Sequence record: PX915677.1
Source of the DNA: a phage
Strand: one strand, 5' to 3'
Length of the DNA: 64,000 nucleotides
Both the position numbers and the translations under genes were made by a program. The notes beneath the pieces are model-generated. The model had not been told where the DNA came from and did not search any database. It saw only the letters and a program-made list of their open reading frames with translations. Shown one piece after another: positions 1,545 through 54,050 of this stretch. The first letter of the stretch is position 1. Each line of letters starts with the position of its first letter.

Positions 1545-1768
1545 TTTCTCAATCCCAGCTTTCTTAAGATACGGCCTAACGTTGTTTCTTGCGTGATAAT
1601 ATAACTGATCGCTTCACGTTCCAGCGTTTCAATCTTCATTGGCGACGGATACCATTCACCGGTAATAACACATTTACATTCAACGCCATATTTTTTAGAT
1701 AGGCGGTAATGTTGACCGTTGACAAGATTCCGATAAATCGTGGTATGCGTAATTAACATGATCATCAC
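1541..1768 (-). CDS. Hypothetical protein (75 aa)
   Basis: ORF track; translationally coupled to 1320..1544. Confidence 0.5.
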   Translation of the reverse strand: MMIMLITHTTIYRNLVNGQHYRLSKKYGVECKCVITGEWYPSPMKIETLEREAISYIITQETTLGRILRKLGLRK

Positions 1769-15799: not shown

Positions 15800-16312
15800 A
15801 TGGCAATGCCAGATTTCAGAGGGGCTTTTACATATAACCCAAATACAGGGCATCTTTTCTGGTCTATGAGTAACGTATTCAATAAACAGAAAGGGAAACG
15901 TGCTGGATGTATTAATAATAAAGGATATCGTGTATTAACCTTCAAGAAGAAATCATACCTAGAGCATAAGGTCATAGCTGAACTCTTTCTTCCTAAAGTA
16001 GAAGGGAAGGATTATGTCAACCATAAGAATGGAATAAAAGACGATAACAGGATTGAGAATCTAGAGTGGTGTACTCAACAAGAAAACTGTACACATGCTT
16101 TTGAAACAGGCCTCTCAACACCTAGGAGTCTTGAGGATAACCCTAATTCCAAACTCACTAAAGAGCAAGTTCTCTTTTGTTTGGAGAACTACAAACCGAG
16201 AGATAGAGAGTTTGGAGCTAGAGCCTTAGCTAGAAAGTTTGGGGTCTCTAAAAGCACAATATCTCTCATTACTAAAGGCGTAAACTGGAAGGAGGTTTAT
16301 TATGATGCCTGA
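15800..16312 (+). CDS. HNH homing endonuclease (170 aa)
   Basis: HNH motif region VNHKNGIKDDNRIENLEWCTQQENCTH; inserted between capsid and downstream virion genes. Confidence 0.7.
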   Translation: MAMPDFRGAFTYNPNTGHLFWSMSNVFNKQKGKRAGCINNKGYRVLTFKKKSYLEHKVIAELFLPKVEGKDYVNHKNGIKDDNRIENLEWCTQQENCTHAFETGLSTPRSLEDNPNSKLTKEQVLFCLENYKPRDREFGARALARKFGVSKSTISLITKGVNWKEVYYDA

Positions 16313-21668: not shown

Positions 21669-21887
21669 ATGAAAATGATGAAACAAGCTGCATATGGTTT
21701 AATATGTTTAGGCGCAGGTGTTGTGGTATCCACCGCAGTTCCTGTAGGCGCAGTTCATCCATTAGTAACTGTCCCTGCTCCAGTAGAGAAGCTTAGCTCT
21801 CAATGCAAGCAGAGAACAATTCAAAATAACTTAGTTGTTATTTGCCCTGATGCTGAATCTAACGCTCTGAGAAAGATACTACCTTAA
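21669..21887 (+). CDS. Small protein with one N-terminal hydrophobic segment (72 aa)
   Basis: ORF track; RBS AGGAGA; immediately upstream of lysozyme gene. Confidence 0.45.
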   Translation: MKMMKQAAYGLICLGAGVVVSTAVPVGAVHPLVTVPAPVEKLSSQCKQRTIQNNLVVICPDAESNALRKILP

Positions 21888-21916: not shown

Positions 21917-22408
21917 ATGGATAACGTCGCATTGCCACCTGTACAACTAAACTTAAGCCCAGCTGGAATGGAATTCATCATGAAGCATGAGGGTATGAGA
22001 ACAAAGGCTTATAAAGATTCCGCAGGTATCTGGACTATATGTGTAGGGGCTACGCGCGATATGAATGGTTATCCGGTTAGACAAGGATTAACGTATTCTA
22101 TAGAGGATTGTCTAGCTCTGCTAGATAGAGACACACAAGACTCTGTTCGTGCTACTCAGAAGAACATAAAGGTTCCTTTACTGGTTCATGAGTTTGATGC
22201 ACTCACTTCTTTCAACTTCAATGTTGGCAGTGGGGCTTTAAGCACATCTAAGTTAAGGAAGGTAATCAATGGAGATGTTAAGGGGGATGTTTATTCCGAA
22301 TTTCTTCGTTGGGATAAAATAACGGTCAAGGGAGAGAAGCAGAGAAGTCAGGGTCTTCATAATAGAAGAGTTGCAGAAGCTAATCTTTACACCGAAGGTA
22401 AATATTAA
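21917..22408 (+). CDS. Lysozyme, T4/P22 gp19-type (glycoside hydrolase family 24)
   Basis: HEGMRTKAYKDSAGIWTICVGAT matches the E...D...T catalytic region of GH24 lysozymes; no SAR-type N-terminus. Confidence 0.8.
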   Translation: MDNVALPPVQLNLSPAGMEFIMKHEGMRTKAYKDSAGIWTICVGATRDMNGYPVRQGLTYSIEDCLALLDRDTQDSVRATQKNIKVPLLVHEFDALTSFNFNVGSGALSTSKLRKVINGDVKGDVYSEFLRWDKITVKGEKQRSQGLHNRRVAEANLYTEGKY

Positions 22409-40653: not shown

Positions 40654-42139
<1,486 letters not shown>

Positions 42140-42140
<1 letters not shown>

Positions 42141-42406
42141 TATTCTATTCCACGCTCTTTAAGAGCTTCTAACAATCCGTTGTGATTAGCAGCACATTCT
42201 GTGTACTGGTCCTGATACCACTCCAACGTAGTGGCTAGTGCTTTTCCTTGAGCACTCTCTAAAAGAGGTAGGTCAACCCTACATTCAGCTTTTAGGTTTG
42301 TTGGTAAGGGCATTGATTGCCTGCTGTTGTCGCTCGTTGAACAAGCTGATAAACTAAAAGCTAGCAAAATCCCCGTACAACTCAATAGCTTTTTCTTTAT
42401 ATGCAC
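42140..42406 (-). CDS. Lipoprotein (lipobox LSAC), candidate outer-membrane spanin subunit
   Basis: GTG start at 42406 with GGAAGGAG RBS; signal MHIKKKLLSCTGILLAFSLSAC; N-terminal coding overlaps 3-prime end of HNH gene. Confidence 0.5.
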
Positions 42407-42812
42407 ACCTAGCTCCTTCCAGTGTATCATGAAAACCAAGCCAAATAACCTTATCCTCGAATCCTATTCGAGCAGTCCATTTGTTAACATCCTTCCTATA
42501 CCCGACACCTTTTATGCCTGTTATAGAATTCTTCTGAGCAGATGTATTCATCTGATTCTGCGCATTGGTTGCTTTTCTTAGGTTAGTCCAAGAGTTGTTA
42601 GATTTAATCTGATCTTTGTGGTCAATATCAGTATCAGGGATTTCCCCTGTTTTTAAATACCAAGCCACTCTGTGCGCTTTATGCGCTTTTCCATTAAATC
42701 TAATAATAATGTATCCAGCATCTATCAAACAACCGGCTTCTTTTCCAGCAAACCTAGAGTTCCATTGATTGCTCTTCTTTTCAGAGCTTCTCCATGTTAG
42801 CTTTCCTGACAC
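42354..42812 (-). CDS. HNH homing endonuclease with AP2-type DNA-binding domain
   Basis: HNH region DIDHKDQIKSNNSWTNLRKATNAQN; AP2-like C-terminus (GVGYRKDVNKWTARIGF...LGFHDTLEGARCAY). Confidence 0.7.
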   Translation of the reverse strand: MSGKLTWRSSEKKSNQWNSRFAGKEAGCLIDAGYIIIRFNGKAHKAHRVAWYLKTGEIPDTDIDHKDQIKSNNSWTNLRKATNAQNQMNTSAQKNSITGIKGVGYRKDVNKWTARIGFEDKVIWLGFHDTLEGARCAYKEKAIELYGDFASF

Positions 42813-42835
42813 TTCATCATAGGATAAAAACTCTT

Positions 42836-43180
42836 CTATTCCTTCGATTTTAAAACCCTCTCAGCTTCTTTCTGTCTCTGGTTAAATAGAGAGACATACT
42901 CATCACTAGCGCAGACATTATAAAAAACTGGTTTAGTTTTCTCATAATGCATCTCTTTATAAATGGTTTCCGTGTTCTTCTTCCAGTTAGATAAACCGGT
43001 AAGAACCCTCTGAGCAACTTCATCAGCTGCTCTATTTCTTTCAATCTCTAACTCTTGTTGATGTTTCTCTTTGTCCAGATTACTGCTGTCTGTTTGATAT
43101 TCGTTAAACTTCATACCACCAAAGAATACAAGAGCTGAGAAAACGATAAACCCTAAGTTATCACTTAATGTGTTTTGCAT
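42836..43180 (-). CDS. N-terminal TM plus periplasmic coiled-coil protein, candidate inner-membrane spanin subunit
   Basis: Start moved to ATG 43180 (GGAGA RBS; track start lies inside terminator hairpin); TM segment GFIVFSALVFFGG. Confidence 0.45.
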   Translation of the reverse strand: MQNTLSDNLGFIVFSALVFFGGMKFNEYQTDSSNLDKEKHQQELEIERNRAADEVAQRVLTGLSNWKKNTETIYKEMHYEKTKPVFYNVCASDEYVSLFNQRQKEAERVLKSKE

Positions 43181-43193
43181 GTTGTCTCCAACG

Positions 43194-43215
43194 AAAAAAG
43201 CCACCCGGAGGTGGC
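43194..43215 (-). terminator. Intrinsic terminator after SSB-like gene
   Basis: GCCACC(cgga)GGTGGC hairpin followed on minus strand by TTTTTT. Confidence 0.6.
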
Positions 43216-43237
43216 TAAGCTATAACAAGGAGAGTTA

Positions 43238-43984
43238 TTAGAATGGGCTATCGTTGTCGTCTTCGTAAGTAGAAGCAGGCTCTTTATCAATCGTAGGGAT
43301 TGAAGGAGTAGCTTCTTTCTGCTCTGTTTCAGAAGCACGAGTAATTTCACGACCAGCCAGAGGCATGTTCTTAGCGTCATTAGCTTGAGTAAGCAGGTTG
43401 CGCTGGAACGGGAACATCAGTTGATAGGATGCTACGTTCTCATCGGTTTCCGCATACGGTTCGAAGAATACCAGAGGACTACGAGCTTCACCAACTGCTG
43501 CACGATATTTGGTTGGGATTGGAGAAATGGTCTTGATGGAGTTTTTAACTTCACCAGCTTTGTTAGTGTAAGAGTTAACCAGAATGTTAACAGGCTGACC
43601 TAACAGAACATCCTTGAACCAAGACAGATCACCTTTCAGTGCTTGAATGCTTGGGTCAATCATCTTGCAAAGATCAAGAATACCAGAGTTCTTAGCTCGT
43701 GGGTTTACATCATAGCTCTTGAACTGGCAAGCCGGACGTGGTTCTAATGCCTTACCATCGGAATCTTTACCAGTAGCATCAACACCAATCAGCTCGAAAG
43801 CCAAATCCATACGGAAAGCCGGATTCTTAGGAGTTACTGCTTTGGTCTTCGGGTCAATCCAAGGGTCACGATTGTGAACACCCAAACCTACTACACGAAC
43901 GATACGAGCTTCGTATTCACCATCAGGGATTACATCGTAGTTGGATTTACGAGAAGAAGTTGCGATAGTTGGAATCATAGACAT
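43238..43984 (-). CDS. Candidate single-stranded DNA-binding protein (T7 gp2.5-like), 248 aa
   Basis: Acidic C-terminal tail ending in Phe (YEDDNDSPF); dedicated promoter motif and terminator; adjacent to replication genes. Confidence 0.5.
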   Translation of the reverse strand: MSMIPTIATSSRKSNYDVIPDGEYEARIVRVVGLGVHNRDPWIDPKTKAVTPKNPAFRMDLAFELIGVDATGKDSDGKALEPRPACQFKSYDVNPRAKNSGILDLCKMIDPSIQALKGDLSWFKDVLLGQPVNILVNSYTNKAGEVKNSIKTISPIPTKYRAAVGEARSPLVFFEPYAETDENVASYQLMFPFQRNLLTQANDAKNMPLAGREITRASETEQKEATPSIPTIDKEPASTYEDDNDSPF

Positions 43985-52656: not shown

Positions 52657-53313
52657 TTAACTCTCCACAGTTTTCTTCAGAGCTGCCCATGAGATTGGGT
52701 AGAGTTTAGCCATCTCTTCATCCAGAGATTTAGCAAACACTCGAACTTCATATTGAGCGTGAGATGAGAGTCGCTGACGACACAACTCAAACCAGCCATA
52801 CAAAGAACCAGTCCACACCCACTCAGTGATCATCCCCTGAGGAAGAACAAATCGAGCTTGCTCTGGTGCAATAAATTCAATCAACTTGTCATATGCTGCT
52901 AGAGAAGCTTCATATGCATCGTTAATCAGCATTAATGCTTCAGCTCGCTCTCCGTTGATGAGTTGAATCCCTGAACCTGCATGGAGGTCCGAAGGTCTCG
53001 CAAAAATCTCTTTAGGGATGAAGACTTCAACTGCTCCATCTTTATACCGCCGGGACATTTCGTTCCACGAGAATCCAACCTGATGCTTCTGTAGTTGACG
53101 AGCGATTGCAATTGGAGCCTTACAACGAAAGGACACTTGTGGGTGACGGAACGGAGTGCAGTGTTTCTCTCTAGCCAAGAAGTTAATCAGCCTAGTATCA
53201 CGATCATTCAAATCACCCTCTCGTACAACACCAAAAGAAACTCTTGCAGCATTAACAACAGTTTTATCACTGCCCATAGCTTCAATCAATGTTGCTTGCA
53301 ATTGTTCATTCAT
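52657..53313 (-). CDS. thyX: ThyX-like (flavin-dependent thymidylate synthase family) protein with altered signature motif
   Basis: VNAARVSFG, TPFRHPQVSF, KAPIAIARQL, SHAQYEV blocks align with ThyX; signature position reads KHQ-x8-S where ThyX has RHR-x7-S. Confidence 0.65.
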   Translation of the reverse strand: MNEQLQATLIEAMGSDKTVVNAARVSFGVVREGDLNDRDTRLINFLAREKHCTPFRHPQVSFRCKAPIAIARQLQKHQVGFSWNEMSRRYKDGAVEVFIPKEIFARPSDLHAGSGIQLINGERAEALMLINDAYEASLAAYDKLIEFIAPEQARFVLPQGMITEWVWTGSLYGWFELCRQRLSSHAQYEVRVFAKSLDEEMAKLYPISWAALKKTVES

Positions 53314-53785
53314 ACTTCAACTTCTCCTTGTTATAAGCAATCTCTGCTTCCTCTGGAGTATGGAAAGTTCCTAAATGCTTAGTCTTTCCGTTAACTCCGA
53401 TTATAGCTCTGAATTTTGTACCACTAGCCGTCTCTCTGATGTAAACACCCATTGGAAGTTTTCCAGCTTTTCCGGCTCTATTGTATTGTTTTCTGTTATG
53501 ACAGTTTGTAGATGGGTCAACATCTCTTAGGTTTTTAAGAGAGTCATCCAGTTTAATCTGGTTGATGTGATCAATCTCAAACTCAGGCATCTTTCCATAA
53601 GAGAAAAACCAAGCTAATCGACATGCTCTGTAAGATTTCCCTTCATAATAGATGTACCTGTAACCTAATGTTGAGACACACCCAGCAATGTTCCCTGATA
53701 CTCTCCTACCTTTGGTATTCTTCCACCTAAAGATTCCAGTATCAGGGTCATATGCTAAGTCTTCTTTTATCTTATCAGTTAACAC
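53306..53785 (-). CDS. HNH homing endonuclease with AP2-type domain
   Basis: FEIDHINQIKLDDSLKNLRDVDPSTNCHN plus AP2-like C-terminus. Confidence 0.7.
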   Translation of the reverse strand: MLTDKIKEDLAYDPDTGIFRWKNTKGRRVSGNIAGCVSTLGYRYIYYEGKSYRACRLAWFFSYGKMPEFEIDHINQIKLDDSLKNLRDVDPSTNCHNRKQYNRAGKAGKLPMGVYIRETASGTKFRAIIGVNGKTKHLGTFHTPEEAEIAYNKEKLKYE

Positions 53786-54050
53786 CTAAAGCTGTATCCA
53801 AAAATGCTTTCAGGTTTGCTTCAGTCTGCATACCAGAGAGGCTGTAATGTGTTCCACTGTTACGGTCAGGTACAACAAAAGCAGGGATGCTTCGTACACC
53901 ATACTTAACAGCTTGTTCACGACCATCACCTTCAAGGATGTTAATCTCTTCCACTTCTACATCAAACTCCTTAACAACCTTCTCAAAGGTAGGAGCCATT
54001 GCTTTACATGGAGCACACTGATCACTATAAAACTTAATTACTTTAGGCAT
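53775..54050 (-). CDS. Thioredoxin-fold protein (CxxC = CAPC)
   Basis: KFYSDQCAPCKAMAP near N-terminus, about 90 aa. Confidence 0.65.
   Translation of the reverse strand: MPKVIKFYSDQCAPCKAMAPTFEKVVKEFDVEVEEINILEGDGREQAVKYGVRSIPAFVVPDRNSGTHYSLSGMQTEANLKAFLDTALGVN

Follow-up and report, generated by a model that had tools for sequence, protein, structure and literature searches.

We analysed a stretch of phage DNA of 64,000 nucleotides (nt; sequence record PX915677.1), referred to here at its full length as the window, in which a gene for an HNH-AP2 endonuclease lies between the genes for the two subunits of a spanin, the i-spanin (a type II inner-membrane protein) and the o-spanin (a small outer-membrane lipoprotein). 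Our favoured explanation, to which we assign a probability of about 0.83, is that a free-standing homing endonuclease gene inserted into a 116-nt overlap between the genes for i-spanin and o-spanin and turned an overlapped pair into a separated one, with neither gene destroyed. The inserted cassette supplies the end of the i-spanin gene (a diverged version of the last 19 codons, and a stop), encodes the endonuclease, and restarts the o-spanin gene from a Shine-Dalgarno (SD) sequence and a GTG codon within the AP2 codons. The charged and hydrophobic parts of the new signal peptide are read in the +1 frame and join the old lipobox.

The window belongs to a phiEco32-like phage (Kuravirus, subfamily Gordonclarkvirinae). 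A megablast search with positions 41600..43700 matched 98 phage records, nearly all of them phiEco32-group Escherichia phages (Kuravirus and Suseptimavirus). The listed records are 93-99% identical to the query, yet cover only ~74% of it in all cases except phage KM01, which has 100% coverage at 97.3% identity and is the sole record among the 98 to cover at least 80%. The quarter of the query that is uncovered in the other records is the HNH gene, which is absent in ~90% of relatives.

In the HNH-free phages Paul (annotated by the Center for Phage Technology) and phiEco32 the spanin genes overlap: the o-spanin, in the +1 frame, begins 116 nt ahead of the i-spanin stop. The same 116-nt overlap is present in SU10 and in the loci L011-L015, and the genes are separated by the HNH gene in nine genomes (the window, seven phages and a metagenome contig, L017); the pair was never found apart. 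In a five-way alignment (A1) there is a single gap of 545 nt, filled in the window and KM01, between a segment ending in GATGAGTATG and one beginning with TCAGCTTGTTCAAC (Table 1). A shared TC leaves an ambiguity of 2 nt in where the boundaries lie. In HNH-free genomes the insertion point falls between the M-S and A-C codons of the o-spanin signal peptide, inside the overlap and at the lipobox, where the uninterrupted sequence includes GCTAGTGATGAGTATGTCAGCTTGTTCAACGAGC. The first 59 nt of the insert continue the i-spanin frame and are followed by the HNH open reading frame (ORF), the last 53 nt of which are dual-coding with the start of the o-spanin. What the insert displaces is the 3' end of the i-spanin gene (the last 14 residues of the protein) and nearly all of the o-spanin signal peptide (precursor residues 1-19).

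Table 1. Features of the spanin locus and of the lysis genes, with positions counted from the first letter of the window (aa, amino acids)
Feature	Position	Strand	Details
Candidate holin	21669..21887	+	72 aa, one hydrophobic segment, immediately upstream of endolysin
Endolysin	21917..22408	+	PF00959 Phage_lysozyme, 3.7e-32; ~19.7 kb from the spanins, other strand
o-spanin lipoprotein	42406..42140	-	88 aa, GTG start
Insertion relative to HNH-free Kuravirus genomes	42350..42894	-	545 nt; alignment with Paul, phiEco32 and SU10, and exact coordinate count
Dual-coding stretch	42406..42354	-	53 nt; last 17 HNH codons and stop, o-spanin in the +1 frame
HNH_3/AP2 endonuclease	42812..42354	-	152 aa counted from GTG; stop 42354..42356
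SD sequence of o-spanin	42418..42413	-	AAGGAG, inside HNH codons L-E-G-A, 6 nt 5' of GTG
i-spanin	43180..42836	-	114-aa ORF, ATG start, GGAGA 5' of start
Relic of old embedded o-spanin start	42945..42850	-	MRKLNQFFIMSALVMSM, then cassette DNA SLYLTRDRKKLRGF and stop; lipobox Cys lost
Intrinsic terminator	43216..43194	-	GC-rich stem-loop AGCCACCTCCGGGTGGCT and T-run, between gp40-like gene and i-spanin gene

The i-spanin gene is a composite of ancestral and cassette DNA. Its codons 1-95 (43180..42896) are ancestral, its last 19 codons and stop (42894..42836) belong to the cassette, and the break follows GATGAGTATG in alignment A1. The C-terminus, VSLFNQRQKEAERVLKSKE and stop, is a diverged copy of the ancestral VSLFNERQQQAINALTNKPKS and stop. 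The protein is 91-92% identical to its counterparts in MN03, phiEc_1 and Paul, and the differences fall almost wholly after the junction. As expected of a spanin subunit, the 114-aa protein has a single N-terminal transmembrane domain (TMD; residues 9-23, LGFIVFSALVFFGGM, mean Kyte-Doolittle value 2.23) with its bulk predicted to be periplasmic (type II), and 36% of the remainder is charged; the Paul homologue carries an annotated TMD at 8-23. A single-sequence AlphaFold2 model, with a mean predicted local distance difference test score (pLDDT) of only 68.6 and a predicted template modelling score (pTM) of 0.32, places helices at residues 3-25, 36-76, 83-90 and 93-112. A longer, GTG-started i-spanin ORF at 43204 was rejected, as its start lies inside the stem of the upstream terminator (also annotated in phage Paul), and the annotated start in homologues is the ATG, a codon with an SD site.

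Several lines of comparison identify the pair as spanins. For the i-spanin the match is to PHROG 1152 ('Rz-like spanin', E=4e-35), and the o-spanin matches PHROG 2425 at 1e-25 and, weakly (1.5e-3), the Rz-like spanin family PHROG 456. The genes are 91-92% identical to Paul's genes for i-spanin and o-spanin and to phiEco32 gp39 and gp38. Kongari et al. 2018 (PMC6139136) place phiEco32 in two families described as 'overlapped', one of i-spanins, which also contains Felix O1-like phages, and one of o-spanins, and i-spanin and o-spanin annotations exist in Felix O1-like and 9NA-like homologues. Pfam has no family match for either protein at E<=0.1, the Rz and Rz1 families included, and the genes are on the other strand from the endolysin and candidate holin, ~20 kb away, among early/middle genes (sigma factor, macro domain, deoxynucleoside monophosphate (dNMP) kinase). 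Such features would fit two membrane proteins that have no role in lysis and that flank the HNH gene incidentally. We give almost no weight to that explanation, against which stand the PHROG 1152 match, the annotated homologues, the curated family lists and the linkage of the two genes, which is invariable in all relatives whether overlapped or HNH-separated. Spanins far from the endolysin are reported in other phages, and the pair of phage Shivani is ~2.2 kb from its holin and endolysin genes and also beside a dNMP kinase gene. In a Kuravirus genome a 219-nt holin gene lies directly upstream of the endolysin gene (PMC12733307).

The sequence-only reading of this DNA had described a type II membrane protein and a lipobox lipoprotein on the strand opposite the lysozyme gene and about 20 kb from it, with an HNH-AP2 gene between them whose last 17 codons or so overlap the signal-peptide codons in another frame. 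These features, with their coordinates, are borne out by the TMD and PHROG 1152 match, the lipobox pattern, the 53 nt shared in the +1 frame and the position of the PF00959 gene. Its proposal of a split i-spanin/o-spanin pair invaded by a homing endonuclease is upheld by PHROG 1152, the Paul and phiEco32 annotations and the published families, and the two genes are kept together in every relative examined, with or without the HNH gene. Its alternative of unrelated membrane proteins is contradicted by the same evidence.

The o-spanin gene is restarted within the endonuclease gene. Over the dual-coding stretch the HNH frame gives the AP2 C-terminus, ending in CAYKEKAIELYGDFASF and stop, and the +1 frame gives the o-spanin n- and h-regions, VHIKKKLLSCTGILLAFS. 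The new signal peptide joins the retained codons S-A-C in frame, so that the precursor begins with VHIKKKLLSCTGILLAFSLSAC instead of the ancestral MRKLNQFFIMSALVMSMSAC. The predicted signal peptide comprises residues 1-21, with an n-region containing HIKKK (three lysines in the first seven residues), an h-region LLSCTGILLAFSL and a lipobox L-S-A-C at Cys22 (codon 42343..42341). The lipobox was called solely by the PROSITE PS51257-type pattern rule, which GILLAFSLSAC fits. The pattern match, together with Ser-Thr at +2/+3 (no Lol-avoidance Asp at +2), predicts the signal peptidase II (SPase II) signal peptide and outer-membrane sorting that are expected of an o-spanin. The mature protein has 66 aa with two further Cys, and its amino acid sequence is identical to that of Paul and of HNH-free Kuravirus o-spanins.

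Three HNH alleles, A (represented by the window), B and C, occur at the identical site, and in all of them the +1-frame signal peptide is open and signal-like (A, VHIKKKLLSCTGILLAFSLSAC; B, MLTKKKQKSCLVIFLASSLMAC; C, VHTKKKLLSCLGILLAANLTAC). The SD sequence AAGGAG is kept in the other allele A phages (KM01, EK010 and E20-1), and allele C has GAGGG 8 nt 5' of the GTG. The GenBank record of the allele B phage SU7 already annotates an 'O-spanin' with a ribosome-binding site (RBS) overlapping the HNH 3' end. In a distant HNH homologue (L018/P0004) the +1 frame of the AP2 C-terminal codons is charged and non-hydrophobic, and from this one case the overprinted signal peptide looks specific and not generic to AP2 codons. 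The recoded i-spanin ends likewise differ among the alleles (A, QRQKEAERVLKSKE; B, ERQQQAAEALKLKN; C, TRQEEAKRVLKSKE). We infer that both rebuilt spanins are functional.

Public annotation of the o-spanin gene is uneven. In the phiEco32, KM01, EK010, E20-1, PAS59 and Bas86/87 records it is called as a 57-aa ORF from the internal Met32, without the signal peptide (L001 2888..3061; L004 2343..2516; L006, L007, L009 and L010 2107..2280). The KM01 57-aa ORF is labelled 'Appr-1-p processing enzyme family protein', a label shifted from the neighbouring gene.

In the Bas86 and Bas87 records (L007, L008) the i-spanin, there named Rz-like spanin, is given as a join of two pieces that skips the HNH gene, as would be expected if the 545 nt were a self-splicing group I intron carrying an HNH gene, with splicing restoring the overlapped pair. 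The ligated-exon junction would then read GATGAGTATG directly followed by TCAGCTTG. The ancestral i-spanin C-terminal frame is indeed open downstream, but necessarily so, since it overlaps conserved o-spanin coding sequence. A search of 41900..43400 with Rfam 15 at E<=10 matched no intron family (there were four chance-level matches to unrelated families), and the HNH ORF leaves just ~86 nt of the insert free, far less than a ribozyme core would need. In all three alleles the i-spanin frame also runs on into the insert to a conserved, homologous C-terminal end and a stop codon, and the insert brings an o-spanin SD sequence, start and signal peptide that would be needless if it were spliced out. 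We rejected the intron, which we consider very improbable, on the absence of an Rfam match and because both flanking genes are complete ORFs without splicing.

The former o-spanin start inside the i-spanin gene is still visible. The frame that it opens runs into cassette DNA and loses the lipobox Cys in the window; in HNH-free relatives the same frame reads MRKLNQFFIMSALVMSMSAC followed by STSDN and is the o-spanin. The truncated frame fails the PS51257-type pattern, and the old embedded start is presumably now a relic. It retains its ATG and 5' context and could still be translated, giving a hydrophobic peptide of 31 aa that lacks a lipobox (MRKLNQFFIMSALVMSMSLYLTRDRKKLRGF); the allele B relic stops after 17 codons, exactly at the junction.

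HNH-free members with overlapped spanins exist in each of the three lineages in which the alleles are found (phiEco32 and Paul; IMG/VR L014; IMG/VR L013), and Felix O1-like relatives of the i-spanin are listed in the same 'overlapped' family as phiEco32 (PMC6139136). Given these HNH-free relatives and the relic of the old start, the ancestral state was overlapped and the genes are now separated, and the direction of change, overlapped to separated, can be read from the sequence comparison. The sequence-only reading, which placed the insertion between the spanin genes, needs refining on this point: from the aligned relatives, the ancestral genes were not adjacent but overlapped by 116 nt, and the insertion is inside that overlap, at the lipobox codons.

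How the cassette came to carry an i-spanin end is suggested by allele B. In this allele the i-spanin end carried by the cassette can be aligned with the ancestral copy downstream of it over 49 nt of DNA (score 38, reached by 0 of 500 shuffles), the codons immediately left of the lipobox included. For alleles A and C the origin by duplication is read from protein-level similarity only (VSLFN.RQ..A...L..K). The allele B alignment suggests that the element consists of the HNH ORF together with a target-sequence duplication of ~45-63 nt, with which it probably arose. After such a duplication the left copy would be free to change solely as part of the i-spanin, and the right copy solely as part of the o-spanin.

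The insert was found by blastn in nine of ~99 matching records, which represent seven phages. Allele A is carried by the window, KM01, EK010 and E20-1 (the three phages being 94-99% identical to the window at the nucleotide level), and allele B, 68% identical in blastn and tblastn searches, by SU7, PAS59, Bas86 and Bas87. Allele C was found via the protein database on a metagenome contig of 76,953 bp (L017). A broad protein search with the HNH protein returned five clusters, a scope sufficient for allele C and for the N-terminal homologues mentioned below, and short of a family-wide survey. The arrangement is not due to chance: it recurs in three alleles with saturated synonymous divergence. 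Among collinear relatives the gene is polymorphic for presence and absence at one fixed site, as is characteristic of homing endonuclease genes.

EK010 and E20-1 are mosaics at this locus. Their gp40-like and i-spanin genes resemble those of SU7 as far as GATGAGTATG, with synonymous divergence (pS) of 0.16-0.26 from SU7 and ~0.5 from the window. From the cassette's first base rightwards they are Kuravirus-like for ~1.4 kb, through the o-spanin gene and half of the sigma-factor gene, and the o-spanin has a pS of 0.11 against the window versus 0.55 against SU7. The recombination breakpoint is within 10 nt left of the insert. A breakpoint at the insertion site with a one-sided tract is the trace that would be expected of homing initiated by a double-strand break, and the mosaic records horizontal movement with co-conversion of a flank. 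During co-infection the endonuclease would cut HNH-free genomes at or near the uninterrupted site, and the cassette with flanking spanin sequence would be copied in by recombinational repair.

The endonuclease matches Pfam HNH_3 (PF13392) at 8.4e-16 (57.8 bits; cut-off 24.8) and PHROG 99 at 3.6e-57. The DNA-binding AP2 domain (PF00847) is matched at E=4e-6 but with 27.4 bits, below the gathering score of 33.3; precomputed Pfam assignments give AP2 for the homologues P0001, P0002 and P0004. The residues D76, H77, N89, L90, R91 and N98 of the HNH (His-Me finger) catalytic motif (D-H...N-L-R...N) are invariant across the alleles and distant homologues. The HNH frame is open 5' to 42860, and the extra part, EEFLSYDEVSGKLTW, is homologous to the N-termini of distant family members. 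Counted from SYD to the stop, the ORF is 471 nt long and free of indels in nine of nine genomes. Between alleles it has pS of 0.69-0.80 (saturated) and nonsynonymous divergence (pN) of 0.15-0.22, and within alleles the ratio of nonsynonymous to synonymous substitution rates (dN/dS) is 0.045 (window and EK010) and 0.118 (SU7 and Bas86). Because dN/dS is low within alleles, the ORF is under purifying selection and the protein maintained.

Several observations weigh against the favoured explanation. The HNH alleles are more diverged (pS 0.7-0.8) than the flanking genes are between lineages (pS 0.45-0.6), a relation explained equally well by active homing and by long vertical co-residence punctuated by occasional precise losses; the alleles would be at least as old as the lineages, or faster evolving. 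In the window flanks one single-nucleotide polymorphism (at -70) is alone shared with the EK010/SU7 types, and there is no clear co-conversion tract. The DNA-level alignment that marks the duplication in allele B is not significant in allele A (82 of 500 shuffles reach the score) or in allele C (488 of 500). The expression of the HNH gene is uncertain because no canonical start lies ahead of its conserved N-terminus: in alleles B and C the conserved segment precedes any canonical start, and in allele A the first GTG or ATG is at residue 17, lacks an SD sequence and, if used, would drop ~16 conserved residues. Allele B (L005/L007, ~1560..1600) has GGAGG-N7-ATT ahead of the HNH N-terminus. In allele C (L017 1402..1420) the HNH ORF is in the i-spanin frame directly after its TAG, with AAGGA-N7-ATT. 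A candidate HNH start is at most ~25 nt from the i-spanin stop in every allele. These arrangements suggest translation by weak non-AUG initiation or by re-initiation coupled to i-spanin translation.

The same observations would be accommodated if the HNH gene were an old, immobile resident, kept only for the RBS, start and signal peptide that it supplies to the o-spanin, with the HNH-free genomes having arisen by precise loss. The three alleles track the three host lineages, their divergence is no lower than that of the flanks, two of them have no canonical start before the conserved N-terminus, the window lacks a clear co-conversion tract, and direct repeats flanking the HNH gene would permit precise excision restoring the overlapped pair. 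Retention for the signal peptide would, however, constrain the last 53 nt only, and it is the whole 471-nt ORF that is indel-free, has dN/dS of 0.05-0.12 and keeps its HNH motif intact. In EK010 and E20-1 the backbone is SU7-like, the allele is A and the breakpoint falls at the junction, which shows that the cassette moved between lineages, and the patchy presence (seven phages, nine records, among ~99) suits the gain and loss cycle of an active element. An immobile, domesticated HNH gene is possible, but we consider it unlikely and disfavour it because of purifying selection over the whole ORF and the EK010 mosaic.

The endonuclease and the o-spanin may have become mutually entrenched: the RBS, start and n- and h-regions exist only as an overprint on AP2 codons. 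We put the chance of this at somewhat below even. Were it so, decay or loss of the element would be barred, save for a precise, repeat-mediated excision that revives the relic embedded start, and each homing event would drag spanin sequence between genera, as in EK010. It would be a natural case of a selfish gene stabilising itself via an essential piece of a host gene, and a directly testable case of spanin architecture switching.

Expression signals and neighbouring genes were also surveyed. A consensus promoter scan found six sites versus 6.4 expected, the level of shuffled sequence. Seven terminator-like sites were found versus 1.8 expected in shuffles; only the known one upstream of the i-spanin gene is convincing, and stems inside the insert are weak (five pairs). 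Upstream of the spanins, a 248-aa gene (43238..43984, - strand) matches PHROG 6599, of unknown function, has no Pfam match and encodes an acidic tail ending in YEDDNDSPF. The C-terminal tip of bacterial single-stranded DNA-binding protein (SSB) is DDDIPF, and by analogy with this tip the 248-aa protein may be a phage single-stranded DNA-binding protein.

Downstream of the o-spanin gene, the window encodes a macro-domain protein (41700..42140; Appr-1-p processing, Pfam Macro 2.8e-9), SU7-type phages have a different 74-aa gene, and in EK010 and E20-1 (L006, L010 2280..2618) an unrelated 112-aa gene replaces the macro-domain gene. From these comparisons the slot is evidently a variable cassette. 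A different HNH gene (137 aa) is found just upstream of the spanin pair, with the gp40-like gene on one side and the terminator on the other, in SU10 (L003 1973..2386), CHD5UKE1, 1-6af and FH3, and is absent from the window; in SU10 it comes directly after the last gp40 codons. The spanin neighbourhood thus seems to be a repeated landing site.

The window carries two further genes of this type elsewhere. A second HNH-AP2-type gene (53306..53785, - strand; 159 aa, HNH_3 6.7e-7, 33% identical to the HNH protein of the spanin locus) is wedged between the genes for thioredoxin (53775..54050) and the ThyX thymidylate synthase (52657..53313) and overlaps both by 8-11 nt. The third HNH_3 gene (15800..16312, + strand; 170 aa, 1.1e-11) is in the structural-gene region and overlaps the start of a downstream 249-aa gene by 11 nt.

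The arrangement of the spanin locus is not discussed in the SU7 genome paper (PMC8399022), the BASEL-II paper (PMC11990801) or a recent Kuravirus paper (PMC12733307). The locus illustrates how two genes that overlap out of frame can be invaded by a mobile gene and both survive, by means of a duplicated shared segment and an overprinted signal peptide. The comparison also corrects annotations, given that most public records of these phages either shorten the o-spanin to a 57-aa 'hypothetical protein' or mislabel it, and two records have a spliced-join i-spanin. phiEco32-like phages with and without the element exist in culture collections, so that homing and spanin function are directly testable.

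The spanins of phages lambda and T4 represent two other architectures: Rz/Rz1 of lambda are embedded, and PseT.3/PseT.2 of T4 are separated. The pair described here resembles both in combining a type II inner-membrane protein, whose periplasmic domain is putatively helical, and a small outer-membrane lipoprotein, and resembles that of T4 in being remote from the endolysin gene. It differs from them in having no Pfam Rz/Rz1 match (E<=0.1), and in a mature o-spanin of 66 aa with two further Cys. The free-standing ('intron-less') homing endonucleases of T-even phages are encoded by the seg and mob genes, among which mobE splits nrdA in Aeromonas phage Aeh1; such nucleases spread by double-strand-break repair with co-conversion of flanking markers. 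The likeness to the seg and mob systems lies in a nuclease ORF between or within conserved genes, in presence that is polymorphic among close relatives, and in a host function that is probably retained. Unlike those systems, the insertion here interrupts an out-of-frame overlapping pair, repairs two frames at once and has part of a host gene overprinted on the nuclease gene, and cleavage and homing are putative.

The nearest relatives of the pair are the overlapped spanins of phiEco32, Paul and Felix O1-like phages (the JH2 i-spanin family and the NJ01, ECBP2, KBNP1711 and PhiEco32 o-spanin family), which are the same proteins, although the window genes are separated and not overlapped. The closest parallel for the rearrangement is in T5-like phages. 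The T5 spanin genes overlap by 70 bp, and those of Shivani and phiR201 are separated by ~700 bp containing a GIY-YIG homing endonuclease gene, a situation described as 'caught in the act' (PMC6139136). Between T5 and Shivani/phiR201 the differences are limited to the very end of the i-spanin C-terminus and, in the o-spanin, to the lipoylation signal sequence; Kongari et al. (2018) pointed out the continued need for a lipoylation signal in the new N-terminus and left the direction of change open (PMC6139136). According to the Shivani record, the ORF in between shares 20 nt with the end of the i-spanin gene and 13 nt with the start of the o-spanin gene. Both cases have a homing endonuclease gene that separates the spanins, with changes confined to the i-spanin C-terminus and the o-spanin signal sequence. 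They differ in the nuclease (HNH_3-AP2 here versus GIY-YIG), in the phage family, in the spanin families, which are unrelated, and in the extent of dual coding, which here covers 53 nt (nearly the whole n- and h-regions, the SD sequence and the start) versus 13 nt in Shivani. Here, moreover, three alleles, nuclease-free relatives and the relic of the old start settle the direction of change. The locus is a second, independent example of a homing endonuclease turning overlapped spanins into separated ones, and is better resolved than that of T5 and Shivani.

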